Positions 3,116 through 32,597 of a DNA stretch of 32,659 bases are shown piece after piece; position 1 is the first letter of the stretch; each line of letters opens with the position of its first letter. The notes under the pieces are model-generated. The model had not been told where the DNA came from, made no database searches, and saw only the letters and a list, made by a program, of their open reading frames with translations. The position numbers and the translations under genes are program-made. This DNA is from a virus. The stretch is from UHGV virus genome UHGV-0188647; one strand, given 5' to 3'.

Positions 3116-4288
3116 TTACGCGCTGACCTGGCTGGAGAAATTCACCAGGTACTGATCGGTGATGCGCTGACGCAGCATCAGGTTTTCAAGTGGCGGCACT
3201 GGTGTGTAGTCGTAGTCGATGGTGAGTTTTCCAGCTTTCAGAGTGTCTTTGTCGTTCACCGACTCATCCAGCCAGCAATCGCCACCAATGAGATAGCCCT
3301 GACTGATCAGGCTGCGCATTTTGGCGCGGATACCTTCGATAATGTCGCGGGCCAGCGACGGATTCAGCGGTTTGTCGACCGCCCACATTGGCGCTTCTGC
3401 CATCGTGTCCATCAGCACCTGCGCCGTGCGGGTGTAGTTTTCGAAGGCAAAGAGTGGGTCATCACTCAGGCAGCGGGAACCCCAGAAGCGAAAGCCGTCT
3501 TTGCGGATAAGTGTGGTAACATCGTTCTGGTTAAGCAGTCCCGCATCAGTTGCCGGGTCCTGCAGATCCCAGAACACATCAGCAGAAATTCCGGTGACAC
3601 CGTTCACGCCCACGTTGGACAGGCTTTTGTGCCACCCTGTCTGCTCATCAATTTTGGCACGCAGACCAAGCGCACGGGCGGTGGCATATGCCGTTGCGTC
3701 GGCATTCAGCACCGTGTCCCAGCCAGTAAAGTCAGGCCAGATCAGCATCCCTTCACGCTGACTGAAGTTTTCACGGTAAGTGATCGCCTCCTGCACCGTC
3801 TTGCAGCCATACGCTGACAGGTAAGCAAACCCACGCAGGCTTTGCGCCACGCCCAGCAACTCAGTAGCAACGGCTTTATTATCGTGCCCCGGCACGCCGA
3901 GAATGCGCGGTTTAACACCGAGCTGTGACTGGGCAGATAACAGGGCTTTCATACCAGTTTTTTTACCTTCAGCAGTCACTGCGCCGATGATATTGGTCGT
4001 GGTTTCTTCTTCCGTTTCACCCTGCGGCACACGCACAACAACGGTCACGGGTTTTGCCTGGTCAGCGATGGCATCCAGCGAACGGGCCAGCGTACCGGAT
4101 TCACCCGCCTTACCGCTGGCAGTAAGCACATCAGTGATCAGCACGGGTTTATTAAGAGGGAACATTTTTGCATCGGCATCATCGCCCGTGCAGACCATGC
4201 CCACGATGGCGGTGCTCACCGTGGTAATGGATCGAGTGCCTTCGTTGACTTCAACAACGCGCACTCCGTGGTGGTAATCCTGAGCCAT
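3116..4288 (-). CDS. FI: contractile tail sheath protein (P2 gpFI-like)
   Basis: 390-aa ORF, first gene after a TGT-N12-ACA late-promoter dyad; size and order FI-FII-E-T match the P2 tail operon. Confidence 0.9.
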
Positions 4289-15001: not shown

Positions 15002-16768
15002 ATGAACACCACACTGACACCCGCAGATCTCGATCCCCGTCGGCAGGCCATGCTGCTGTACTTTCAGGGATACCGCGTAGCCCGCATTGCTGAAATGCTG
15101 GGCGAGAAAGTTGCAACCGTTCACAGCTGGAAAAAACGCGACAAGTGGGGTGACTATGGGCCGCTGGATCAGATGCAGCTCACCACCGCCGCACGCTACT
15201 GCCAGCTCATTATGAAGGAGCACAAAGAAGGGAAAGATTTCAAAGAGATTGACCTGCTGGCGCGCCAGTCGGAGCGCCACGCGCGGATCGGCAAGTTTAA
15301 CAATGGCGGCAACGAATCCGACTTAAACCCTAACGTCGCCAACCGCAACAAAGGCCCGCGCCGTCAGCCGGAAAAGAATGTTTTCACCGATGAGCAGATT
15401 GAGAAGCTGGAAGAAATCTTCCATTCCTCCATGTTCAACTACCAGCGCCACTGGTGGGAAGCCGGAAAAACCAACCGCATCCGCAACCTGCTGAAGTCAC
15501 GCCAGATCGGCGCGACCTTTTACTTTGCCCGTGAAGCCCTGATTGACGCTCTGCTTACCGGACGTAACCAGATTTTTCTTTCCGCCAGCAAGGCACAGGC
15601 TCACGTCTTTAAGCAGTACATCATAGACTTCGCCAAAGAAGTCGAGGTGGAGCTGAAAGGCGATCCGATGGTGCTTCCTAACGGAGCCACGCTTTACTTC
15701 CTCGGCACCAATGCCCGCACGGCCCAGAGTTACCACGGCAACCTGTATCTGGATGAATATTTCTGGATACCGAAATTCCAGGAGCTGCGCAAAGTGGCTT
15801 CTGGTATGGCTATTCACAAAAAATGGCGACAAACCTATTTTTCCACGCCATCCAGCCTGACACACAGTGCTTATCCGTTCTGGTCCGGTGCGCTGTTCAA
15901 CCGTGGGCGCAATAAAGCCGATAAGGTGGACATCGACCTGTCCCACAGCAATCTGGCCCCCGGCCTGCTGTGCGCAGACGGGCAATACCGCCAGATAGTC
16001 ACCGTGGAAGATGCAGTGCGCGGCGGATGTAACCTTTTCGACCTCGATCAGTTGCGCATGGAGTACAGCCCGGACGAATACCAGAACCTGCTGATGTGCG
16101 AGTTTGTGGACGATCTCGCGTCCGTGTTCCCGCTCAGCGAGCTGCAGGCGTGCATGGTGGACAGTTGGGAAGTCTGGACCGACTTTCATGCACTGGCCCT
16201 GCGCCCGTTTGGCTGGCGCGAAGTGTGGATCGGTTATGACCCGGCAAAAGGTACGCAAAACGGCGACAGCGCCGGGTGCGTGGTGGTGGCACCGCCAGCC
16301 GTGCCGGGCGGTAAGTTCCGCATTCTTGAGCGTCACCAGTGGCGCGGGATGGACTTCCGCGCCCAGGCTAACGCCATCAAAAAACTGACTGAACAGTACA
16401 ACGTGACATACATCGGTATCGACTCAACCGGCGTCGGTCACGGGGTTTACGAGAACGTGAAAGCGTTTTTTCCTGCCGTCCGGGAGTTTGTCTACAACCC
16501 CAACGTTAAAAACGCCCTGGTACTCAAGGCCTACGACATTATTAGCCACCGCCGCCTGGAGTTTGACGCCGGGCACACCGACATAGCGCAGTCCTTTATG
16601 GCAATCCGTCGCGCCACCACTGCCAGCGGCAACCGCCCGACCTATGAGGCCAGCCGCAGCGAAGAAGCCAGCCACGCCGATCTGGCCTGGGCAACAATGC
16701 ACGCACTGTTTAACGAACCGCTGCAGGGCGAGTCCGCCAATACCAGCAATATTGTGGAGATTTTTTGA
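15002..16768 (+). CDS. P: terminase large (ATPase) subunit (P2 gpP-like)
   Basis: 588-aa ORF (P2 P is about 590 aa), divergent from O, followed by the portal gene with an ATGA overlap. Confidence 0.9.
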   Translation: MNTTLTPADLDPRRQAMLLYFQGYRVARIAEMLGEKVATVHSWKKRDKWGDYGPLDQMQLTTAARYCQLIMKEHKEGKDFKEIDLLARQSERHARIGKFNNGGNESDLNPNVANRNKGPRRQPEKNVFTDEQIEKLEEIFHSSMFNYQRHWWEAGKTNRIRNLLKSRQIGATFYFAREALIDALLTGRNQIFLSASKAQAHVFKQYIIDFAKEVEVELKGDPMVLPNGATLYFLGTNARTAQSYHGNLYLDEYFWIPKFQELRKVASGMAIHKKWRQTYFSTPSSLTHSAYPFWSGALFNRGRNKADKVDIDLSHSNLAPGLLCADGQYRQIVTVEDAVRGGCNLFDLDQLRMEYSPDEYQNLLMCEFVDDLASVFPLSELQACMVDSWEVWTDFHALALRPFGWREVWIGYDPAKGTQNGDSAGCVVVAPPAVPGGKFRILERHQWRGMDFRAQANAIKKLTEQYNVTYIGIDSTGVGHGVYENVKAFFPAVREFVYNPNVKNALVLKAYDIISHRRLEFDAGHTDIAQSFMAIRRATTASGNRPTYEASRSEEASHADLAWATMHALFNEPLQGESANTSNIVEIF

Positions 16769-17793
16769 TGGGAAAGAGTAAGAAAAACCGCGCTGCGGCG
16801 ACGAATCAGCTCAAGCATAAAAGCCAAACTTCAGCCGAAGCATTCAGCTTTGGCGATCCCGTTCCTGTTCTGGACCGCCGTGAACTGCTGGACTATGTGG
16901 AATGCGTACAGATGGACCGCTGGTATGAGCCGCCCGTCAGCTTTGACGGACTGGCACGAACCTTCCGCGCCGCCGTGCATCACAGCTCACCAATTGCGGT
17001 GAAATGCAACATTCTGACCAGTACCTACATCCCTCACCCGCTGCTCAGCCAGCAGGCTTTTTCACGTTTTGTGCAGGACTATCTGGTATTTGGTAACGCC
17101 TACCTGGAGAAACGCACGAACCGCTTCGGTGAAGTTATCGCCCTTGAGCCTGCTCTGGCAAAATACACCCGACGCGGGTTAGACCTGGATACCTACTGGT
17201 TTGTGCAATACGGTATGACAACCCAGCCGTATCAGTTCACGAAAGGCAGCATTTTTCATCTGATGGAACCGGACATCAACCAGGAGATCTACGGCCTGCC
17301 AGGTTATCTTTCTGCCATTCCATCAGCCCTGCTCAACGAGTCCGCCACGCTGTTCCGCCGCAAGTATTACATTAACGGCAGTCATGCAGGCTTCATCATG
17401 TACATGACCGATGCCGCGCAGAACCAGGAGGATGTGAACAACCTCCGCAATGCGATGAAAAGCGCCAAAGGCCCTGGCAACTTCCGCAACCTGTTTATGT
17501 ACTCGCCTAACGGCAAAAAGGACGGGCTTCAGATCATCCCGTTGTCAGAAGTCGCGGCGAAGGATGAGTTTCTGAGTATCAAAAATGTCAGCCGCGATGA
17601 CATGATGGCAGCGCATCGTGTGCCGCCGCAAATGATGGGGATTATGCCGAATAATGTTGGGGGGTTTGGGGATGTGGAGAAGGCAAGCCGTGTGTTTGTT
17701 CGTAACGAACTAATACCATTGCAAAAAAGATTGGATGAGTTAAATAATTGGTTAGACGATAAAATAATAACATTTAACACATACAATTTTTAA
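16765..17793 (+). CDS. Q: portal protein (P2 gpQ-like); last ~25 codons unusually AT-rich
   Basis: 342-aa ORF (P2 Q is about 344 aa) after the terminase gene, oriented toward cos; the C-terminal tail ...LDELNNWLDDKIITFNTYNF is encoded by AT-rich DNA unlike the rest of the gene. Confidence 0.85.
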   Translation: MMGKSKKNRAAATNQLKHKSQTSAEAFSFGDPVPVLDRRELLDYVECVQMDRWYEPPVSFDGLARTFRAAVHHSSPIAVKCNILTSTYIPHPLLSQQAFSRFVQDYLVFGNAYLEKRTNRFGEVIALEPALAKYTRRGLDLDTYWFVQYGMTTQPYQFTKGSIFHLMEPDINQEIYGLPGYLSAIPSALLNESATLFRRKYYINGSHAGFIMYMTDAAQNQEDVNNLRNAMKSAKGPGNFRNLFMYSPNGKKDGLQIIPLSEVAAKDEFLSIKNVSRDDMMAAHRVPPQMMGIMPNNVGGFGDVEKASRVFVRNELIPLQKRLDELNNWLDDKIITFNTYNF

Positions 17794-17798
17794 AGCAA

Positions 17799-17818
17799 GC
17801 CCTCAATCGAGGGCTTTT
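17799..17818. terminator. hairpin terminator between the convergent portal gene and cargo operon
   Basis: gccctc-aatc-gagggc stem-loop followed by tttt on the plus strand; A-rich on the other side. Confidence 0.5.
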
Positions 17819-17823
17819 GAAAA

Positions 17824-18345
17824 TCAGTTAATCAGTTTATTTAATGACTTAGACCACTTCTGTCCCAAATCATCAATATCAAAATCACCATCTCGCTGCT
17901 GCCATTTAAAAACTAAGGCTATAAGTTCACTCTTGAGGATTCTTTTATAATAATCCTTAGATTTTAATTGCTCAAGTATATGTTCACCAACCTCAGCAAG
18001 CTTTCTATGATTTAATTCTGACAGATCTCGATGCAAATGGTTAACTGATTTATACAAAGTATTTCCTTCAGTACGAGAAATATCAATACCTTTATCTTCA
18101 AACCATTGTGAATCAAGCCAAACCAAATCTATCGTAGCTGGCTCTGACATCGTGGTGGCAAGGGCAACAATAATTTTCTCTACCGATTCATCTTGAAAAT
18201 CGATAGAGTCAGAAACCCAAACTGACAAGGTGTTATTAGAGGTCCTTGTGCAACCTGTTATCGCGTCTGCGGATATATTGTCAGGTGCTCTACCTTTATT
18301 ACATTCCCATTTACTATGGGATATTTTACGCAATAAATATGTCAT
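17824..18345 (-). CDS. hypothetical protein, cargo operon gene 3 (173 aa)
   Basis: AT-rich ORF; its ATG overlaps the upstream gene's stop as TAATG (18343-18347); no family recognised; has an R-x6-H pair (RDLSELNH). Confidence 0.6.
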   Translation of the reverse strand: MTYLLRKISHSKWECNKGRAPDNISADAITGCTRTSNNTLSVWVSDSIDFQDESVEKIIVALATTMSEPATIDLVWLDSQWFEDKGIDISRTEGNTLYKSVNHLHRDLSELNHRKLAEVGEHILEQLKSKDYYKRILKSELIALVFKWQQRDGDFDIDDLGQKWSKSLNKLIN

Positions 18346-18992
18346 TATAGACTTCTCAAATATCCTATAACTGCTTCTTTATATTCTTCCACCCAATCAG
18401 CATCAAATTTCCTCATTCTTTCAAGGACTGGAATAAATGATTTTTCCCCCCAAGACTCAACTGCACGGATCGCTGCCTCAAATATAAGTTCATTCTCAAG
18501 AGAACAAACTCCCATAATCATAGCGTCAGCTTTATTACCTAACCATTCATATTCAATAGTCGATGCAAAATTAATGAAGTTCTTTACATGTTGATCATTC
18601 ATTCTGTACAATTGTACCCATGTCCTTTGAAAGGACTCTTGGAATAAATCCTGATTTTTATCATACAAGAACTCCATGTAAATCTGTGTCTTGCTTATCT
18701 CGCCTTCAATGTAATCTTCTGAACATGTTAACTCAATTAGTCTAGAGGTACATTTTGAAACCTGAATTTCAAAGTTCTGCTTAGTTGACGAACCTTGATT
18801 TATTGACTCAGTCTCTAATTGAAAGCCACCATTTGTTTTGCTATGTGACAGCTCATTTCTTTTAATATCAGCGTAAATGATATTGTTACCATCATAATAA
18901 TCAGAAAATGCACCTATTGAACTTACCCCATTTTTAAACTTAGGTAAGCCAAAAGGCTTTTCATCACTTATTATAAAACTATTCTTTACCAT
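18345..18992 (-). CDS. hypothetical protein, cargo operon gene 2 (215 aa)
   Basis: AT-rich ORF 9 bp after gene 1, with an AAGGTGA RBS; no family recognised. Confidence 0.6.
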   Translation of the reverse strand: MVKNSFIISDEKPFGLPKFKNGVSSIGAFSDYYDGNNIIYADIKRNELSHSKTNGGFQLETESINQGSSTKQNFEIQVSKCTSRLIELTCSEDYIEGEISKTQIYMEFLYDKNQDLFQESFQRTWVQLYRMNDQHVKNFINFASTIEYEWLGNKADAMIMGVCSLENELIFEAAIRAVESWGEKSFIPVLERMRKFDADWVEEYKEAVIGYLRSL

Positions 18993-19001
18993 AGCATCAC
19001 C

Positions 19002-19697
19002 TTACAGAGAAGTGTAGCGTTGTAAATTATCAATAGTTTTAAGATTGTCCTGACACAATAACTCTAGCACGCGGATATATTCATCCCAACCAAACCGCAT
19101 ATATCCATTTTGAGGAAGAGTATTAGTATCAGTTTCAAATAATACGCAATCACTTGGCATACCATTATTCAAAAATGGAGCTGAAATTTCAGCGCGTCTA
19201 ATTGTACTAATACTATTAATTTCTTCCTGATACTCTTCAATATTTTTCCTTACAGCTATACGATTGTCCCACTCAAATGGATTAACACCTTTATAGGTAA
19301 ACAAAGCATTGTAAAGCGAAGAGTAAACAGATTCATCCCCTTGATAGATACGTGAATTCAGAACAGCTATCCTATTTCCTTTTTTCATCGGAAATACGTT
19401 TTGTAGTTCCCTAGATATAGATAGAACCATTTCTGAAAACGCTTGAGGTTCCCCCCCCAAACCATTAAAAATGATTCCATGGCTAGGAAACTCGACTCTT
19501 ACTGTTTGATTGGTATCTACCATGATAAGAATTTGCTTTTTCTCACCAGTGATGGCATTAATCTCCTGACCAAAAGTAGGTACAAATCCAAATTTTCCAA
19601 TCTTATCAAGCATAGATCCAATAGTTAGTGTATTTGGAACTATATCATTATTATTTGTGAAAAAATTAATCTGATGCGTCTGTTCAATCAATTTCAT
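19002..19697 (-). CDS. hypothetical protein, cargo operon gene 1 (231 aa)
   Basis: AT-rich ORF with an AAGGAG RBS 5 nt upstream of the ATG; first gene downstream of the cos-like site; no family recognised. Confidence 0.6.
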   Translation of the reverse strand: MKLIEQTHQINFFTNNNDIVPNTLTIGSMLDKIGKFGFVPTFGQEINAITGEKKQILIMVDTNQTVRVEFPSHGIIFNGLGGEPQAFSEMVLSISRELQNVFPMKKGNRIAVLNSRIYQGDESVYSSLYNALFTYKGVNPFEWDNRIAVRKNIEEYQEEINSISTIRRAEISAPFLNNGMPSDCVLFETDTNTLPQNGYMRFGWDEYIRVLELLCQDNLKTIDNLQRYTSL

Positions 19698-19844
19698 AAT
19701 TGCTCCTTGTTCAAAAAAACACCACCGCTCAGTGGTTCCTCTCTGTTAAAATATTCTAGTTCAACTTACTCTCAATATGAATCAAAGCTTAACCCTGGTT
19801 GGTAATTAAGTCACACTTTTCTTCATAGTAAGGGATTTCGCGCG

Positions 19845-19863
19845 CTCGTATCCCCGCCACGCC
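19845..19863 (-). other. cos-like cohesive-end site (186/P2 type)
   Basis: The minus strand reads ggcgtggcggggatacgag, matching 15 of 19 positions of the 186 cohesive end GGCGTGGCGGGGAAAGCAT as I recall it; it lies between the right-end operon terminator and the portal side, in the expected orientation. Confidence 0.4.
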
Positions 19864-19904
19864 TGCCCGCTTTATGTAGTGGTTTTCATGCACCTGCATG
19901 AGCT

Positions 19905-19932
19905 ACGCAAAAGCCCGCCAGTTCTGGCGGGC
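19905..19932 (-). terminator. rho-independent terminator after the SOS-controlled two-gene operon
   Basis: 7-bp GC stem (gcccgcc...ggcgggc) followed by a TTTT tract on the minus strand. Confidence 0.5.
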
Positions 19933-20067
19933 CTTAGCAAAAACGATCCTCAAACGATCATGCGATCTCATGCGGCATAGACATGCACTACAGAGCTAAC
20001 GCCTCGCAAGGGCTCGTTGTTCAACCTTGCTGACGCCAGAAGCAAGTTCAGACGCCAGCAACGTTTC

Positions 20068-20301
20068 TTAATGCAGCCAGCTGTCGTCTTCCCACACCTT
20101 CTGCATAATTTTCATCACTTGTTTTCTTTCTTCGTCCAGTTGCAGTCCGGTTAGTTCCACACCGTTAGAGCTACCTTTGCGAATGCGAATTACCGTTTTG
20201 GGATACAGGGGGCGCAGATTGCGGTAAAGCTCGGATTCAAGGGCGTCCAGGGTAGACTGGCTAATCTTCTGCTCTTTATCGATCATTATTTCAATGCGCA
20301 T
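20068..20301 (-). CDS. DinI-family protein (Tum/DinI-like SOS effector)
   Basis: MRIEIMIDKEQKISQSTLDALESELYRNLRPLYPKTVIRIRKGSSNGVELTGLQLDEERKQVMKIMQKVWEDDSWLH resembles E. coli DinI as I recall it; start taken at the internal ATG 20301 with a GAGGTGA RBS. Confidence 0.7.
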   Translation of the reverse strand: MRIEIMIDKEQKISQSTLDALESELYRNLRPLYPKTVIRIRKGSSNGVELTGLQLDEERKQVMKIMQKVWEDDSWLH

Positions 20302-20653: not shown

Positions 20654-23068
20654 TTAATACAGGTTCCGCCACTGATCATCTTCCTGCAAACGCTGGCTCC
20701 GATAGAAGATACGCAGGCCTGCTCCTGACGGAATACTGCCTCCGCGAAGGAGTAAATCGACCTCTTTCTCGCTGCCATCAAATCCTCTGGACTTCAGCTC
20801 ATACACGAGCTGCAGTCGCTGATGGTCTGTAATTCGCTGTTTGTAGTCTTTACGCCGTTTCGGTTTCACCAGGCATAACCTTGCTGCCAGTTCCCGGCGC
20901 TCTTTTTTGCTCATACTGTGCAGGTAATCGTGCAACTCCTTGTCATCCATGCTGGTAATGTCCGTTCTGGGGTCCCCATCAGCTGATTTATCTTTCTCCT
21001 GTTGGTTCAAATTTTCAGCAAGGGGACAGTTATTGCCACGAGTCCAAGGGGCGCAAGCGCCCTGGTCGGCTGCCGCCTCCTGAACGTCAACGGCCTTACG
21101 AACCATTTTCCACTTCACTGCATGAGTGCAGATCTTGCCCTCTGCAATGGGTGACCAGATGCCATAAATACGAATGCCGTGATCGCCATAGGCGGTCGGC
21201 TCTTCGTTGATTTCATAAGCGGTTCTGATGAGGTGATATTTGCGGGGAACCAGTACGCCGCCCTGCTTCATGATGTAGGTGGCAAAACAACCAGCATCAG
21301 CAGCAGCCAGAATGGCATCAAGACGCGGGTTATCCAGTACCGGCGCACCTGCTTTTTTGTCACCCTGTTGCCTTGCCGCCTGACCAGCCAGCAAGCGAAG
21401 TTCACGGTAAGCCTGACGTCCCGGAATACCAAAGAAGCGGAATTGCTGTACACGATGCAGAGACGCCCAGGCATTAACGTATTCAGCGTTATCACGCAGG
21501 GATTTACCCGTTTCCTTGCTGATCTCGCCAGCCAGACCACGCCCGTCAATGTTCTTACTGATGTATTTCGCGATGTAGCTTGTCGGCGTTCCTTTGCGCG
21601 GGTTTATCAGCTCAGATTTAAAGCGTGGACCAGTGTTATTACCCAGTTCCTCGCGGTCTTCACGGATGGCAAACTTACGCAACAATGCAGTAATGGCGCG
21701 GCGGTCTTTTTTGCGCATGAAACACAACAGGTGCCAGTGAACTGTACCGTCATGATGCGGCTCAGCCACCCGCACGCCATACCAGCGCAACCCGGCTTTG
21801 TGCATCGCCTTACGAAATGCAGCAAACATGCCGACCAGATAATCGCTGCTTTGTCTTACCGTCGCATTTGTCCAGGTTGGGTTTGGTCTGCCGTTATTGA
21901 GCGTGGAATGGAAACGTGACGGACAGGTAATGGTGTAGAAAACGGCGCAGTCACCGCGCATTTCCGCGATAAGCTCCAGACCTTTAACACAGGCCATCAT
22001 CTCATTGCGGCGGTGCGCCGGGTTGCTGCTGCTGGCGTTTACCACGTCTTCCATATCCAGCGTGTCGCCCTCTTCGTTCACCAGTTCATGAGAACGGAAA
22101 AACTCCAGTGACTTGCGGCGCTGCTCACGTTTATGAATCACGGCTTCATAGCTGACATAGGGAGATGCTTTTTTGCTGACCAGGCAGACAGCACGCAACT
22201 GCTCTTCCCGCCATTCGCAACGCATTTTCCATAATTTCCGGTACCACCAGTCGGCACACAACATACGCGCCAGCGAACCCGGAATGAGTTCATAGGGCAC
22301 GGGTTGACGGCGGTTTCTTTTCCGACGGAGTTGCTCAAACGCAGGCGGAATAACATCCAGACGCAGGGTTTCCGCTGCCACCTTTTCCCATGTTTTGCGG
22401 ATTTCTTCTGGCTTAACGTCATCGGTGGCGTACAAATCACCACAAGCGGCATCAAGACACATGCTCATATGCGCAGCGACAAGAGTAGACAGGCGTTTCA
22501 CCTGATCCTGACTCATTTCAGGCAGAATCAGCAGGCCGTCCAGCCCTACATGGCTTGCCATAAAACGAAAAGATGCAGATAGCTGGCTGTCGCGTACATG
22601 CTCCAGTCGCTCCAGACATGGCTTAATCGTCTCACGCAAATAGCGGGAATAAGCCTTTGGCCTGCCCAGGCTGCTGAAGTATTCAATACGTTGCATCAGC
22701 GGCTTGCTGATATGGGAAGGCTGGGCATTGACGTCCGCCAGAATGACCATATCTGGATTAAAACGCTGCTGCTCATGCGCCAGCTTTGCCCGACTAATGA
22801 GCTTATCCTGCTCCATTTCGCGCTGGACAGGATCACGGGATTCATTAAAGAAATAACGCTCCCAGACCTGATCACTCAGTGCCTCGCGGCGCAGGTGTTC
22901 CTGCTCGTTATCGGCAGCGTACAGAGCGATCAGGTTTGAAAGCGCAGAAACCGGCGCAACTTCCGCCGGGTCCAGATAAGGGTTAATGGCCTTTTTCGGG
23001 CTGTTCCATGAGAACGCTGCGGCAGCCTCGTTAAAGCCGCAGCAGTTGTTCATATCGGCATGGCTCAT
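20654..23068 (-). CDS. A: replication initiation endonuclease (P2 gpA-like, rolling-circle initiator)
   Basis: 804-aa ORF with an HxH-type motif (TVHWHLL) and a tyrosine pair motif [10 protein letters not shown] (Y-x-x-K-Y); its position matches P2/186 gene A. Confidence 0.85.
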
Positions 23069-26497: not shown

Positions 26498-27520
26498 ATG
26501 ACCATCAGAAAACAGCCGAACGGAAAATGGTTGTGTGAGTGCTATCCCAATGGACGCAATGGCAAGCGCGTGCGTAAGCAATTTGCCACGAAAGGCGAAG
26601 CCATTGCGTTTGAAAGCTTCACAATGGAAGAAGTGAATAAAAAACCGTGGTTGGGTGAAAAGGATGATCGGCGACGCCTATCAGAATTAATTGAGCTTTG
26701 GTATTCCCTATATGGTCAAACACTCGCAGACCCCAAGCGCCTCATGGCGAAACTTAGAATTATCTGTAATGGTCTAGGCGATCCCATCGCCTCAGAACTG
26801 ACAGCTGGTGACTTTACAAAATACCGCGAAGCACGGTTAAAAGGTGAAATACGAAATGAAGATGGCACGCTTATGTCGCCCGTTAAGCCCCGCACGGTAA
26901 ACCTTGAACAGCGCAATCTATCATCTGTGTTCGGTACATTAAAAAAACTAGGACACTGGTCAGCACCAAACCCGCTGGCAGGACTTCCGACCTTCAAAAT
27001 TGCCGAAGGTGAGCTGGCTTTTCTTTCCACGGACGAAATCAAGCGCCTGTTGGCGGCATGTGCTGAATCTCAAAGCCCTAGCTTACTAATGATTGCAAAA
27101 ATATGCCTAGCTACTGGCGCACGGTGGAGTGAAGCCGAAAATCTGCAGGGCCATCAAATATCGAAATACCGAATTACTTATACAAAAACAAAAGGCAAGA
27201 AAAACCGTACTGTGCCGATATCTCAGGATCTGTATGATGAACTCCCCAAAAACAGAGGGAAGCTATTCACTCCATGTAGAAAAGCCTTTGAGCGGGCGGT
27301 TAAACGCGCGGGTATTGAGCTGCCAGAAGGCCAATGCACCCATGTACTGCGCCACACATTCGCCAGTCACTTCATGATGAATGGCGGAAACATACTCGTT
27401 TTGAGGGATATTTTAGGGCATTCAGATATTAAGATGACTATGGTTTATGCCCATTTTTCACCAGAGCATCTTGAAGATGCAGTAACTAAAAACCCACTAT
27501 TTAATTTAAATATTATATGA
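26498..27520 (+). CDS. int: tyrosine integrase (P2/186 family)
   Basis: C-terminal catalytic region HVLRHTFASH...LGHSDIKMTMVYAH (R, H-x-x-R and Y signature); 340 aa. Confidence 0.9.
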   Translation: MTIRKQPNGKWLCECYPNGRNGKRVRKQFATKGEAIAFESFTMEEVNKKPWLGEKDDRRRLSELIELWYSLYGQTLADPKRLMAKLRIICNGLGDPIASELTAGDFTKYREARLKGEIRNEDGTLMSPVKPRTVNLEQRNLSSVFGTLKKLGHWSAPNPLAGLPTFKIAEGELAFLSTDEIKRLLAACAESQSPSLLMIAKICLATGARWSEAENLQGHQISKYRITYTKTKGKKNRTVPISQDLYDELPKNRGKLFTPCRKAFERAVKRAGIELPEGQCTHVLRHTFASHFMMNGGNILVLRDILGHSDIKMTMVYAHFSPEHLEDAVTKNPLFNLNII

Positions 27521-28578
27521 ACATTAATACTAGCTTTACTGGAATTATTGTGTATATTTTGGCAATTATTCTTTTTGCGTTTGTATCAATATATAAAAAG
27601 TGGTACATTCTCGATAAAAGAAATTTATTTCAACAGAAATTATTTTGGATTTCAATTGCAGTACCACTGCTGTCATTCATTTATTTTGGAGCATTTGCAT
27701 GGTTTGGTAAAATACCTGTTCTTTCTGCTCACGGATATGCCAGATTCTATGAGATAAGCAAATTCCCATTATTGATACTCGCAAGTTCTGTACCATTAGC
27801 TTCCATAGTAAATAACATTCACAGAACGATACAAACCGAAGCACAAATTAATTCATCTGAAATCAAAAATGCAATCGATAGACATTTTGCTCATGAGAAA
27901 AATTTCGTAGATAAAATTAAAGAAATATCAAGCTTTACGATGCAAAGCTTTGTAGATGACGCATCAAAATATTATAATTACAATGATAGCAACAAAATTA
28001 AAATACTAACAACTCATGAAATTAAAATCTCAAACCCATACTTATTATATTCCAATATATATACAGAATCGTCAATGGATATCACATCCAATTATTCACC
28101 AGACGAGAACTTTAAAAAAAGCATATTGTCAATCCTAGATACCATTAATAATAACTTATCAAAAGATAAGGTTACACCCCATTCAAATGCAGAAGATTAC
28201 CTTACCAGATTAAATACAATTTCATATAACATAGCTAAATTATTAGATACTTTATGCGTAGATTGTATCTCGATAGCCTATATAGAGTTAAAAATCAACG
28301 GCACTAAAATAAGAACGTTCACCCCTACAGAATCAATGTTAGCCGAATCACTTGAGGCTGCATTTTATCTATCTAAAAAGATATTAAAACTAGCTTACGG
28401 ATTTCAGCTTCAAAACTACAGTAATATATATAACTACTTGTACATTGGTGAAATTAAATTTGATACAGAACAATTTTCTAAATTTTTGCAACCATTCTAT
28501 TCTCCTGAATGGTCAGCATACGTAATGGAGAAACCGGTGACAGTTGATGATGGCGGCACTTTGGCGGCAGAGGATTAA
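27517..28578 (+). CDS. hypothetical membrane protein (353 aa), AT-rich moron translationally coupled to int
   Basis: ATGA start/stop overlap with int; 2-3 N-terminal transmembrane helices followed by about 250 aa of soluble N/K/I/Y-rich sequence; no family recognised. Confidence 0.6.
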   Translation: MNINTSFTGIIVYILAIILFAFVSIYKKWYILDKRNLFQQKLFWISIAVPLLSFIYFGAFAWFGKIPVLSAHGYARFYEISKFPLLILASSVPLASIVNNIHRTIQTEAQINSSEIKNAIDRHFAHEKNFVDKIKEISSFTMQSFVDDASKYYNYNDSNKIKILTTHEIKISNPYLLYSNIYTESSMDITSNYSPDENFKKSILSILDTINNNLSKDKVTPHSNAEDYLTRLNTISYNIAKLLDTLCVDCISIAYIELKINGTKIRTFTPTESMLAESLEAAFYLSKKILKLAYGFQLQNYSNIYNYLYIGEIKFDTEQFSKFLQPFYSPEWSAYVMEKPVTVDDGGTLAAED

Positions 28579-28913: not shown

Positions 28914-30155
28914 ATGGCAAGACAAACCAAACCTCTATCCGTTAAAGAAATAGAATCAGCCAAACCCAAGGAGGCGGACTACGTTCTCTATGATGGCGAT
29001 GGCCTTGAGCTACTCATTAAATCCAGCGGGAGTAAAATCTGGCAGTTTCGCTACATTCGCCCTGTCACCAAGAAACGAGCAAAGAAGAGCATAGGCTCCT
29101 ACCCGTCAGTTACCCTTGCCGATGCCAGAAACTACCGTGCAGAGTCCCGCTCACTACTGGCTAAACAGATCGATCCGCAGGAACATCAGCAAGAACAATT
29201 GCGCAGTTCGCTGGAAGCCAAAACCAACACTTTCCAACTCGTAGCTGAACGTTGGTGGAATGTGAAGAAAGCCAGTGTGACAGAGGACTATGCGGAAGAT
29301 ATCTGGCGCTCTCTTGAAAGAGACGTCTTTCCTGCGATTGGCGACGTTAGCGTTACAGATATTAAAGCTCATACACTGGTTCAGGCCGTACAACCGGTTC
29401 AGGCCAGAGGAGCACTGGAAACTGTTCGTCGCCTGTGCCAACGTATTAATGAGGTCATGATCTATGCCCAGAACACAGGGCTGATTGATGCTGTTCCCAG
29501 CGTTAATATCGGTAAAGCCTTCGAGAAGCCTCAGAAAAAGAACATGCCCAGCATTCGACCGGATCAGCTACCTCAGTTAATGCAGACGATGCGAACAGCC
29601 AGCATTAGCCTTTCCACACGCTGCCTGTTCATGTGGCAACTTCTTACTATTACCCGCCCTGCCGAAGCGGCTGAAGCTCTCTGGGAAGAGGTAGACATAG
29701 AAGCGCGAGAGTGGAAGATTCCTGCAGCACGCATGAAAATGAACCGCGACCATACTGTTCCATTGTCAGATGAAGCAATTGCGATACTAGAGATGATGAA
29801 GCCGTTAAGTGGAAATCGAGAATTTATCTTTCCCAGCCGCATCAAGCCAAACCAGCCGATGAACAGTCAGACCGTAAACGCATCGCTAAAACGCGCAGGT
29901 TTTGGTGGGGTGCTCGTTTCACACGGCCTGCGATCTATCGCCAGTACAGCCCTTAATGAGCAGGGATTTCCACCTGATGTTATTGAGGCTGCACTTGCTC
30001 ATGTGGATAAGAATGAGGTTCGTCGTGCGTATAACCGTAGTGATTATCTTGAGCAGCGACGGCCTATGATGCAGTGGTGGGCTGATTTTGTGATGGCTGC
30101 AGATCACGGTAGTATGATTGAAGGAGGGATAAAGGCAATGCGGTTAGTTGGATGA
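28914..30155 (+). CDS. P4-type tyrosine integrase (IntA-like) of a second integrated element
   Basis: 413 aa; N-terminus LSVKEIESAKPKEADYVLYDGDGLELLIKSSGSKIWQFRY is the typical P4-integrase arm-binding domain; lies directly downstream of the ssrA 3' end as in ssrA-linked islands. Confidence 0.85.
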   Translation: MARQTKPLSVKEIESAKPKEADYVLYDGDGLELLIKSSGSKIWQFRYIRPVTKKRAKKSIGSYPSVTLADARNYRAESRSLLAKQIDPQEHQQEQLRSSLEAKTNTFQLVAERWWNVKKASVTEDYAEDIWRSLERDVFPAIGDVSVTDIKAHTLVQAVQPVQARGALETVRRLCQRINEVMIYAQNTGLIDAVPSVNIGKAFEKPQKKNMPSIRPDQLPQLMQTMRTASISLSTRCLFMWQLLTITRPAEAAEALWEEVDIEAREWKIPAARMKMNRDHTVPLSDEAIAILEMMKPLSGNREFIFPSRIKPNQPMNSQTVNASLKRAGFGGVLVSHGLRSIASTALNEQGFPPDVIEAALAHVDKNEVRRAYNRSDYLEQRRPMMQWWADFVMAADHGSMIEGGIKAMRLVG

Positions 30156-30235
30156 CATGTCGTAGCTAAAACCCGTTCTGTTTTTGGGTAGATTAACCTG
30201 AAGGTCTGCAATTTTAAATGACGCTGAAAGAAGTT

Positions 30236-30264
30236 AAACCCTGCTCTTAAGCAGGGTTTTTATG
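30236..30264. terminator. bidirectional hairpin between the integrase gene and the convergent large ORF
   Basis: aaaccctgc-tctta-gcagggttt stem-loop followed by ttttat. Confidence 0.45.
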
Positions 30265-30293
30265 ATTTATTCTAATTTTGGTTTTGAATCTTT

Positions 30294-32597
30294 CTATTTT
30301 AAATCAGCCTTTGCGGCTCGAATATCTGCGTTTTTTGCTGAGTATTCCCATTCGTCAGCGATTCTAAATAGCATTGCAGAAGTACGGACGCAGTGGGGCA
30401 TTGAATTTGCCCATTCTCGGTACTGCTCAGCTAATATCCTTTCTTGGTTTCCACCTTCGTAACGCATACGAGCAAATACCCCCCTTTTATTGTACCTACC
30501 AATTTGTATACCTTGCTCTAACTCATCAGAAGATAATATTTCAATGATGTGCCGAATTGCTTCATGTGGCCAGGAATTATCTACTGAGCTATTAGGGGCA
30601 TGTGCCAGAATTTTTCCTATTACATGATCAGTGATTTCTTGGCGATGATGCAATTTTGCTAAATGGCGTACATTCTCACACCAATCTTCAAGTTTATCTT
30701 GATCAATTTCATTGTCTATCTGCCCTGGTAGTATTCGTAATTTTTCAAGTAATCTGTATATAGAAGTAGCTCTTTTAACTTCCAACTCCGATGGTTCTGT
30801 TTGTTCATCTTCGTCACTACGATATACAATACATATTGCTTCTATAAAAACCTCTGGCTTTTTCATCATTAGACGATGCAGGATAAGTGGCTCATCGCTA
30901 TCCGGAAAACAAGGCAAGTAGGTCATTTCTTTAAATGCCAAATCTGTTTCAGAAACATCGTTACGTTGTTTGAGTTCATCAAAAACTTTTTTTACATAGT
31001 ACGATAGCATTGTATCAAATTGGATATCCTGGCTATTTATTTCTTTAACGACTATATCTAGAAGATATAAAAGTGTTGTAGATGGAATCTCAGAAAGGCG
31101 TTGATTTGCTGATATAATAGCAGCAAGACCCCGGCCCCTTTCTATATATTTATCCATAAGAACAAATAAATCCGAAGTTTTACCCATCATTGCAATGGGT
31201 TGTTTTTGCAACCAATATTTTTCGTTGATGTTATCTTCAAACCCTTCAATAATGCTCCATATCTCTTGTGAGTCTCTTAACGATGCTAAGATTTTCCCAG
31301 CCCTATCAGGGGTAATTTTAAACTGTTTAAAATACACTTTTATTTTATTAAGCCATTCAGCACCAAAGCATTCAACACCATATTGCATTAACAACCCACA
31401 AACTTCATCAATATTTTTTTTGTTGTTAATAAGCATTACAAACAAATCATTTAATTTTTCTTCATCCAACGAGAGTGCTGATATATGCCTTGCTGCAATA
31501 AAAACATTATTAACTTGTTGAAAAAGGTCTTTCACCCCAGACAAACCTAAAGTAAAGTATATTTCCCTAAGTTTTTCACTTCGCATTTCTTCGACAGAAG
31601 AAAAAATTCCGCCAGCATTTTCAATTGACTCTTCAATATCAGAATCCCAATCATTGAAAATCCATAAACTGGCTCTAACCATGTCAATTGGTTTATAATT
31701 ATCAAGTATTTTCGCTATTTTTTCCATAGACTCAAATTTAAATGCCCAGTTCGCATCTGAATATTTTTTATGGCGAGAATACTCATGACGCAAAGCCTCC
31801 CATACGATGAACTGATCCTCTTCAGTTTGTTGAGAAAGGCAAAGTTCAAGATGAGAAAGTGTTTCATCTATTGCATTCTCAGGGAATGAGCTTAAATGAG
31901 AGATTAGGATTTCCCATCTTGTTGGGAGTATACCTGCAAGTTTAATTGCTTCTTGGATAATAAAGATTTGCCCCTCCCAAACAACGCCCCACGTTAGTTT
32001 TTCTACATCTTTATCCGACTCTCTGAACTTCATTTTTTGGTTTTGATCAGAGGTATCATGGGAGCGAGGAAGGAGATTTTGTAACAAACTCCACCCAATA
32101 CTAGGAACAATAGTGATAATTTTTTTTATAATTGCATTTCTAACTTTTACTGGTGCCCATGTATTAGGAGACCATGCCAGAAAAATGGTTCTTAAACTAT
32201 TAAGAGGGCGATCTGAGTAAGTTCCTCCGGGATCTATTACAGCGAGTTTTGCAAGACAGATTGCAGCGCGTAATAGATATGTTTGTTCCCAAGCCAAGGC
32301 TTCCAATGCCCATTTTAATCCATGATAATGACTTCGAGGAGTTAACAGCCCTTTATCTTCATTGAATATTGGAGCAATCATTTCCCCATTGCCCTTAAGC
32401 AATTGCTCAAGGGCATCAAGGAAAGGGCCAGGGGCAGCTTCTGCCAGCAGCGGAAGTTGATCTCGCAAACTAACAAATAGTCGATGGTCGTTAGCAAGTC
32501 CCGGAATACTCTGAACTATTTTGTTAACAAAATCTTGGGGTGTCATACCAGTAACCCGGAATTCGGCCTGTTCATGTAATATGATCTTACCCAGCAA
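30294..32597 (-). CDS. large hypothetical protein (767 aa), AT-rich island cargo
   Basis: Long uninterrupted AT-rich ORF convergent with the P4-type integrase; no Walker A or other motif recognised; the start may be the Met at 32597 or the internal Met at residue 17. Confidence 0.6.
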   Translation of the reverse strand: MLGKIILHEQAEFRVTGMTPQDFVNKIVQSIPGLANDHRLFVSLRDQLPLLAEAAPGPFLDALEQLLKGNGEMIAPIFNEDKGLLTPRSHYHGLKWALEALAWEQTYLLRAAICLAKLAVIDPGGTYSDRPLNSLRTIFLAWSPNTWAPVKVRNAIIKKIITIVPSIGWSLLQNLLPRSHDTSDQNQKMKFRESDKDVEKLTWGVVWEGQIFIIQEAIKLAGILPTRWEILISHLSSFPENAIDETLSHLELCLSQQTEEDQFIVWEALRHEYSRHKKYSDANWAFKFESMEKIAKILDNYKPIDMVRASLWIFNDWDSDIEESIENAGGIFSSVEEMRSEKLREIYFTLGLSGVKDLFQQVNNVFIAARHISALSLDEEKLNDLFVMLINNKKNIDEVCGLLMQYGVECFGAEWLNKIKVYFKQFKITPDRAGKILASLRDSQEIWSIIEGFEDNINEKYWLQKQPIAMMGKTSDLFVLMDKYIERGRGLAAIISANQRLSEIPSTTLLYLLDIVVKEINSQDIQFDTMLSYYVKKVFDELKQRNDVSETDLAFKEMTYLPCFPDSDEPLILHRLMMKKPEVFIEAICIVYRSDEDEQTEPSELEVKRATSIYRLLEKLRILPGQIDNEIDQDKLEDWCENVRHLAKLHHRQEITDHVIGKILAHAPNSSVDNSWPHEAIRHIIEILSSDELEQGIQIGRYNKRGVFARMRYEGGNQERILAEQYREWANSMPHCVRTSAMLFRIADEWEYSAKNADIRAAKADLK

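Follow-up and report, generated by a model that had tools for sequence, protein, structure and literature searches.

A probable replaceable accessory cassette with likely anti-phage cargo between the cos site and portal gene Q of a Fels-2/186-like prophage

The prophage in the 32,659-nucleotide (nt) sequence of virus genome UHGV-0188647, the whole of which is called the window in the following, is Fels-2/186-like (Peduoviridae, P2 family) and lies in the orientation opposite to the P2 map. Between its portal gene Q, the stop codon of which ends at position 17793, and its predicted cohesive-end site (cos), it carries an operon of three minus-strand genes (17824–19697; 2.1 kb, 35% guanine-plus-cytosine, GC, between Q and cos), and the question arises how these genes came to lie next to the packaging site and how much of the neighbouring DNA came along with them. 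From our point of view, the likely answer is that they belong to a replaceable accessory cassette in the known cosL-Q slot, which is exchanged by recombination with one junction in Q and the other one at cos, and which carries a likely anti-phage cargo.

The cassette would extend roughly from 17692/17725 to 19838, ending at about codon 309–320 of Q, and would comprise a promoter region on the cos side, the three genes convergent with Q, a hairpin terminator and the final ~25–33 codons of Q itself. Over this stretch, between about 17700 and 19830, the GC content falls from ~53% to ~33%.

The portal tail and the proposed exchange of the cassette

The portal gene consists of two parts. Its conserved body (16768–17691, plus strand; Pfam Phage_portal) starts with ATG 16768 in RefSeq, with TTG 16765 being offered by the open reading frame (ORF) tool, has a GC content of 53%, and encodes a protein with 84–94% identity to the portals of Fels-2, Klebsiella phage 4LV2017 and Escherichia phage vB_EcoM-813R9 (hereafter 813R9), which together with RE-2010 are the closest sequenced phages. 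It is followed by a putatively recombinant 3' tail (17692–17793, plus strand), which encodes VFVRNELIPLQKRLDELNNWLDDKIITFNTYNF and the stop codon, with the junction located between about 17692 and 17725. The final codons of Q had been described as AT-rich in the original prediction, and indeed the last 90 nt have 23–26% GC compared to 53% in the remainder of the gene, the AT-rich stretch amounting to the final ~25–33 codons.

In the window, Fels-2, 4LV2017 and 813R9 alike, the last 90 nt of Q have 23–32% GC and the sequence upstream ~53%, whereas the same tail has 51–56% GC in P2, 186 and PsP3, all of which lack cargo between Q and cos. In the close relatives, the portal proteins can be aligned colinearly and are near-identical through ...VFVRNELIPLQ and then diverge with only a loose motif being retained. 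The flanks of Fels-2, 4LV2017 and 813R9 are 90–96% identical, but each of these phages possesses its own cargo and its own AT-rich Q tail. An alignment of the portal C-termini among relatives hence gives the picture that a recombined 3' end had predicted, namely tails that differ along with the cargo while Q is otherwise 84–96% identical.

The same pattern is found in a broader sample. From a collection with one genome per species, 80 loci encoding relatives of the window portal were obtained, 64 of which have a cos motif downstream of Q. Across these 64 loci, an AT-rich Q tail is present only where the slot between Q and cos is occupied, the drop in GC towards the tail being 0.15 in occupied and 0.02 in empty loci (Mann-Whitney p = 7e-5), and the GC content of the tail correlates with that of the cargo next to it (rho = 0.70, p = 5e-9). 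In 50 related loci, the GC content at third codon positions (GC3) of Q is equal for occupied and empty slots until the VFVRNE motif (17692 in the window), and past this motif amounts to 0.37–0.51 in occupied compared to 0.67–0.81 in empty loci. The GC-normal tail of phages with an empty slot reads …RLQELNDWLGEEVIRFEPYTLGLTEDKRND. The divergent tails of close relatives, the GC3 split and the normal-GC tails in phages that lack cargo thus support the earlier proposal that the insertion was acquired by recombination at the 3' end of the portal gene.

Only 30 nt separate the stop codons of the convergent genes Q and cargo gene 3, and they are wholly occupied by a hairpin, the core stem of which (17798–17804/17809–17815) can be extended to 17786–17824. 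With folding energies of -16.4 kcal/mol on the plus strand (z = -5.2) and -14.0 kcal/mol on the minus strand (z = -3.4), its stability is far above that of shuffled sequence on either strand, and its flanks are rich in A and T. A shared bidirectional terminator had been placed at 17799–17818. Of this proposal, the stable hairpin on both strands holds, whereas the T-tracts turned out to be short (TTTTG and TTGCTTT, with U-runs of 3–4), for which reason a consensus terminator scan made no call at 17786–17824. We nevertheless regard the hairpin as a probable bidirectional terminator common to Q and the cargo. Of 51 related loci, 48 have a different hairpin, at least as strong as -9 kcal/mol, no further than 70 nt from the Q stop, and since every related locus has its own distinct one, the terminator would itself be part of the cassette.

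Cargo, terminator and portal tail hence vary together while cos and the body of Q remain constant, which argues for a cassette that is exchanged by recombination. Such cassettes could be swapped between P2-like genomes with one junction in or at the conserved cos block and the other one resulting from a homologous crossover within Q. If the DNA of the C-terminal tail is too diverged for crossovers, the exchange would be resolved upstream of it and the tail would hitch-hike with the cargo, and a base composition of the tail like that of the cargo would follow. Insertion by a transposon or a site-specific recombinase was rejected, as the cassette has no flanking direct or inverted repeats and none of the three cargo proteins matched a transposase or recombinase in the Pfam and PADLOC scans.

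The cos side of the cassette

The predicted 19-nt cohesive end lies at 19845–19863 on the minus strand, where it reads GGCGTGGCGGGGATACGAG (plus-strand letters CTCGTATCCCCGCCACGCC), and is the sole cos-like motif of the window. The annotated cohesive ends that open the records of P2 (GGCGAGGCGGGGAAAGCAC) and of 186 and PsP3 (GGCGTGGCGGGGAAAGCAT) agree with it at 12/19 bases, the first 12 being contiguous, and at 13/19 bases, the first 13 being contiguous, respectively. It is further an exact copy of the "putative cos site" 19-mer at position 1 of the record of Salmonella phage SEN8, which the SEN8 genome paper names as cos by annotation and without end mapping. The sequence GGCGWGGCGGGGA is found once in the window at a chance expectation of 0.11. 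As in P2 and 186, the site is located between the replication-gene side and the portal and terminase genes.

On the A side of the 19-mer, a block of at least 120 nt with TGCAT/GCATG repeats (19864–19983, minus strand) is conserved in 49 Fels-2-like loci and can be aligned to the right ends of P2 and 186 (...AAAACC...AAGCGGGC); it probably represents the terminase recognition region. A conserved flanking core of 55 bp that is common to P2 and P4 has been described for P2-type cos sites (Ziermann and Calendar, 1990, as cited in PMC5694545), and the window has a flanking core of this type, consisting of the A-side alignment and GCGCGC next to the 19-mer. In 4LV2017 a strict cos pattern finds no match, yet BLAST detects the cos block of this phage. 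From the homology with the P2 and 186 ends, which have been mapped, and from the identity with SEN8, we predict the cohesive ends at 19845/19863. This agrees with the original prediction, according to which a cos-like 19-mer lies beyond the operon, so that the operon comes first after the left cohesive end, ahead of the portal gene. RefSeq annotates a pseudogene with an internal stop at 19789–19971 (Prokaryotic Genome Annotation Pipeline), which spans cos and is probably spurious.

The boundary towards the cassette is sharp. Across the 49 loci, which stem from different species, the 19-mer is invariant save for position 13 and is followed by a conserved CGCGCGC (6–7 bases), after which conservation ceases; the information content on the Q side is 1.6–2.0 bits at positions +1 to +6, 1.1 bits at +7 and ~0.1 bits beyond. 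In the window, the only conserved bases on this side are CGCGCG (19839–19844, minus strand), and at the equivalent position P2 and 186 have TGCGCGC. As conservation ends 7 nt past the cohesive end, the variable DNA of the window would begin at ~19838, and the packaging site as a whole is made up of the A-side block of at least 120 bp, the 19-nt cohesive end and CGCGCG.

Given that in these 49 loci the variable DNA begins just 7–8 nt from the cut site, one could imagine that the cos-side junction results from end-initiated or illegitimate recombination at the terminase-cut end and that only the junction in Q is homologous. Rousset et al. (2022; PMC9122126) voice this idea in their discussion, speculating that the cos end serves as a substrate and that a second, homologous event follows. 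It also draws support from loci with cargo on both sides of cos, in which the conserved cos block provides a short arm of about 150 bp. The very same boundary would, however, be expected if those 7 nt were simply the last bases needed by the terminase. In addition, ~150 bp of near-identical sequence suffices for RecA-dependent exchange, which counts against a need for end initiation. We hence consider an origin of the cos-side junction at a cut end to be unlikely, while still deserving attention. A more far-reaching proposal, which we regard as quite improbable, is that the C-terminal ~25 residues of the portal are functionally coupled to the cargo, for example in that each cassette brings a tail variant rendering the resident phage compatible with its own defence system or invisible to it, or that the exchange is started by the terminase cut and completed in Q. 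If true, either variant would turn the observed anatomy into a general rule for the reshuffling of immunity genes in P2-like phages, and a terminase-started exchange would turn the packaging machinery into an engine of defence-gene turnover.

Occupants of the slot and the nature of the cargo

Of the 64 loci, 54 carry cargo in the cos-Q slot, with 609–6150 bp separating the Q stop from cos, while the other 10 have 126–238 bp there, like P2 and 186. Among the ORFs of at least 80 amino acids (aa) in occupied slots, 93/103 are convergent with Q, as they are in the window. A PADLOC analysis of the slot ORFs detected AbiL, AriA (PARIS), Old, PtuA, GajA-like ATPases, PD-T4-9, PD-T7-4 and others, and on account of these recognised defence families the slot appears to be a general site for defence genes. 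In Fels-2 it holds a 565-aa protein, the counterpart of which is annotated as AIPR or abortive infection protein in related phages, in 4LV2017 the retron St85 reverse transcriptase plus effector, and in 813R9 a protein with a Hypoth_Ymh domain; in SEN8 and Cartapus, too, cargo separates the annotated cos from Q.

The two sides of cos are linked: a longer Q-to-cos interval goes along with a shorter cos-to-gpA interval (rho = -0.61, n = 43), so that cargo on one side tends to exclude cargo on the other, possibly due to a limit on the packaged genome size. The same kinds of systems use both slots, given that homologues of Old, AriA/PARIS, AbiL, PtuA and PD-T4-9 are found on the Q side in other species and old of P2 resides on the A side.

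The cargo of the window is read from cos towards Q. Its leader and promoter region (19698–19838, minus strand) is AT-rich and nonconserved, with promoter-like hexamers at 19781–19748 and a hairpin plus T7 run at 19736–19721. It is followed by cargo gene 1 (19002–19697, minus strand; 231 aa; PHROG 19817), which corresponds to RefSeq entry WP_032235580 in the identical CV839-06 locus, by cargo gene 2 (18345–18992, minus strand; 215 aa; PHROG 21208), for which 6 homologue clusters were found, and by cargo gene 3 (17824–18345, minus strand; 173 aa), a candidate effector with weak resemblance to the ADP-ribosyltransferase (ART) fold. The leader hairpin (ACCACTGAGCGGTGGT, then T7) abuts the ribosome-binding site and ATG of cargo gene 1, lies downstream of the only promoter-like sites, and looks like a terminator or attenuator. 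A role as a conserved attenuator was rejected, since the hairpin and T7 run are absent from the homologous cassettes of other species.

Scans of the cargo and its surroundings against Pfam, PADLOC, NCBIfam and Rfam gave no informative match, and the PHROG matches of the three proteins are all to families devoid of an assigned function. Profile searches of PDB sequences with alignments of genes 1 and 3 found no match, and a literature search with the three RefSeq accessions and two PHROG identifiers retrieved no paper, one accession being listed in a supplementary table. The AlphaFold2 model of gene 1 (predicted local distance difference test score, pLDDT, 92) is a two-repeat alpha/beta saddle, and a fold search with it returned a weak resemblance to the folds of TBP and rolling-circle Rep proteins at a template modelling score of about 0.3.

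For gene 3 (pLDDT 90), the fold matches remained below threshold, with ART-fold toxins recurring among them (RES, DarT, Tpt1/KptA, NarE, HopF/AvrPphF). Its family comprises at least 1865 clusters at 50% identity (E <= 1e-3) and is covered by neither a Pfam nor a PADLOC model; a scan of 46 distant relatives against both resources did not assign them to any family either. The members are stand-alone proteins of roughly 165–180 aa, in which R5, K11, W12, D26, S40, W42, H104 and D106 (window numbering) are invariant. Judging from the modelled fold, it is possible that gene 3 encodes an ART-fold-like effector that uses nicotinamide adenine dinucleotide.

The trio recurs as a unit, with proteins of 231, 181–219 and 172–180 aa, the position of gene 2 being always filled in homologous cassettes. 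It occupies the same cos-Q slot in P2-like prophages of Pantoea, of Klebsiella pneumoniae and of a metagenome, and is also found outside of phages, in the chromosomes of Vibrio alginolyticus and Acinetobacter baumannii. Two loci of Erwinia billingiae have the trio together with cos, an integrase and an Ogr/Delta-like gene, the portal gene being missing or truncated; they look like decayed P2-like prophages that have retained the cargo.

On the basis of these comparisons, the cargo is most likely an anti-phage system. One could argue instead that it represents another lysogenic-conversion or addiction module, for example a toxin-antitoxin pair or a host-fitness factor, as it lacks a PADLOC match and known domains and is distinct from the validated three-gene system Rst_3HP. 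By association, three observations speak against such a module: the slot carries recognised defence families in prophages of other species, the three-gene unit is kept across phage and island contexts, and the cargo is, like other hotspot defence cargo, AT-rich and rare, being present in 4 of 5426 complete Escherichia coli genomes. We therefore consider a function other than phage defence rather unlikely. With its conservation as a unit and with gene 3 belonging to a large family that has no Pfam or PADLOC model, the trio can reasonably be seen as a candidate new defence system.

Objections, prophage layout and known systems

Several points weigh against a recombined cassette with defensive cargo as outlined above. 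The sample of 64 loci was picked by portal similarity to the window, and Fels-2-like phages are consequently over-represented in it. The cohesive ends are placed by homology, and the cos features of SEN8 and Cartapus, which were used for comparison, are themselves labelled putative. The sharp boundary on the cos side may mark the limit of functional constraint and not the place where recombination starts, and the defence role of the cargo is that of a candidate by association. Furthermore, the portal tail keeps a conserved protein motif (PLQxRxxELNxW...F..Y), so that relaxed constraint and AT-biased drift could contribute to its composition. Finally, the linkage between tail and cargo across species is significant but small: among 1035 locus pairs, tail identity is 0.62 in the 28 pairs with homologous cargo and 0.59 in the others at an equal Q-body identity of 0.81, and 2 of 5000 label permutations reach the observed value, the effect amounting to +0.036 identity.

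Both the family-wide motif and the small linkage would also fit with an AT-rich tail that is native to the lineage, fast-evolving and weakly constrained, in which case the junction of the cargo would lie downstream of the Q stop. Such a native tail is difficult to reconcile with phages that have 90–96% identical flanks and yet possess unrelated tails, each matching the composition of its own cargo, or with the normal-GC tails of empty-slot phages and the way in which tail GC tracks cargo GC (rho = 0.70). A query with the Q segment 17200–17830 is matched in 1242 of the 5426 complete E. coli genomes, and the sampled alignments stop at window positions 17684–17789. In contrast, tail plus cargo (17700–19870) is fully matched in only 4 genomes, which are those with this cargo, while 5 further matches span just the last ~40 nt at cos. 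Relatives that share the portal C-terminus and have no insertion, which would have refuted the original prediction, were thus not found among the near-identical E. coli matches, tails of ~88–91% identity elsewhere not having been inspected. In the comparison with homologous cassettes from Pantoea, Erwinia and a metagenome, DNA identity is ~80–85% in Q, ~60% from ~17725 to ~19825 and ~80% again from cos on. Hence, we regard a native tail as very improbable and as largely refuted already.

Even less credible is a functional cos elsewhere, for instance between Q and the operon, or an unpackageable prophage with a relic 19-mer, for which one could cite the pseudogene annotated across cos and the placement of the ends by homology, as the window has a single cos-like motif, this motif and at least 120 bp of A-side flank are kept in 49 species-level loci and can be aligned to the mapped P2/186 ends, the spacer between Q and the operon offers only 30 nt, all of them hairpin, and the core genes that were checked (head, terminase, tail-tube, replication, CI/CII and integrase genes) are present as long ORFs.

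In the order gpA, DinI, cos, cargo, Q and P, the cassette is embedded in an otherwise typical arrangement. Next to Q in this order lies the gene for the large terminase subunit, a gpP homologue (15002–16768, plus strand; Pfam Terminase_5, Terminase_6N and Terminase_6C; terminase ATPase subunit in RefSeq), and head and tail genes on the minus strand extend to ~14.9 kb. On the A side of cos, there is just a DinI/Tum-like gene (20068–20301 in RefSeq coordinates, minus strand; Pfam DinI, E = 1e-22) and a 62-aa ORF, so this slot, which is equivalent to the position of tin and old, is essentially empty. Between the DinI-like gene and cos, an inverted repeat forms a GC hairpin followed by TTTTGC (19907–19938, minus strand), which is kept in the 49-locus consensus, has the same position as the terminator t95b of 186, and is probably the equivalent terminator of the A/DinI operon. 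A gene like orf97/STM2726, which in 186 and Fels-2 (3520–4251 of the compared Fels-2 locus) is located between DinI/Tum and cos, is absent at 19864–20067 of the window; according to the annotation of 186 orf97, its expression from a plasmid blocks infection by 186.

The homologue of replication gene A follows at 20654–23068 (minus strand; Pfam Phage_GPA, E = 7e-128), and past it are genes for a Dam methylase, CII, a 186-type CI repressor and the integrase. A 353-aa ORF that has neither a Pfam nor a PADLOC match (27517–28578, plus strand) overlaps the end of the prophage integrase gene, and could be cargo in the integrase-att position, a minor P2 hotspot according to a 2026 survey. At 28914–32597, a second integrase (Arm-DNA-bind_3, Phage_int_M, Phage_integrase) and a 767-aa minus-strand ORF, again with no Pfam or PADLOC match, suggest that another integrated element adjoins the prophage.

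How does the cassette relate to what is known about P2-like phages? The cos-proximal interval between gpA and gpQ is an established defence hotspot of P2, for which tin and old serve as the reference (Rousset et al., 2022; PMC9122126), and the 2026 survey likewise found many P2 defences between gpA and gpQ as well as defence genes that are almost unlinked to whole core genes. The window cargo lies in this interval next to cos, and the content of the interval differs among phages with near-identical cores. In Table S5 of Rousset et al. (2022; PMC9122126), the protein of cargo gene 1, WP_032235580, is even listed within an arrangement of "hypothetical x6 + DinI". The slot between cosL and Q had moreover been proposed as a hotspot for foreign genes of P2-like phages (by Dodd and Egan in 1996 and by Nakayama et al. 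in 1999, both as cited in PMC5694545), with extra ORFs separating the left cohesive end from the portal gene as in the window, SEN8 and Cartapus. The suggestion that the operon defines a hotspot different from the tin/old position is therefore correct in so far as cos physically separates the operon from that position, whereas the idea of a separate hotspot is not new, the slot having been proposed before and being part of the published gpA-gpQ interval.

As the hotspot itself is established, the placement of the cargo is mainly a correct re-discovery. We did not find it stated in Rousset et al. (2022) or in the 2026 survey that the junction on the Q side falls within the portal gene and the cos-side junction 7 nt from the cut, and PMC5694545 makes no mention of a portal tail that travels with the cargo. 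The exact junctions hence provide testable support for a turnover of the cos-adjacent hotspot by recombination among related phages, and the precise boundaries can be used for automated mining of cargo.

Among characterised systems, Rst_3HP (pFR109; Rousset et al., 2022), which protects against P1, resembles the window cargo in that it consists of three genes with no recognisable domains in a P2-like hotspot with a Fels-2-type cos. It differs in the lengths of its proteins, which clearly deviate from 231, 215 and 173 aa (the third being 227 aa), and the cloned fragment runs through cos into the A-side block ahead of its genes, suggesting an A-side position. An identity of the two systems was rejected on comparing pFR109 protein 3 with cargo gene 1, the only pair that was compared (no significant similarity; BLASTP E = 0.012 over 26 residues; hhalign probability 0.4%), and is also opposed by protein sizes and by the position relative to cos. 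Rst_3HP thus appears to be a different system.

The window cassette shares with the hotspot of Rousset et al. (2022) its location beside cos between gpA and gpQ, its variable content and known defence systems as other occupants. Unlike there, where a single interval is described and the best-known occupants are on the A side, the window cargo is found on the Q side. The same holds for the comparison with the tin/old locus of P2: both represent AT-rich, non-essential cargo next to cos that is read away from cos and is convergent with the neighbouring core operon, but they occupy opposite sides of it. The old-tin transcript of P2 starts ~150 nt from cosR and proceeds away from cos; the window cargo is likewise oriented away from cos, and the two slots can accordingly be seen as mirror images of each other.

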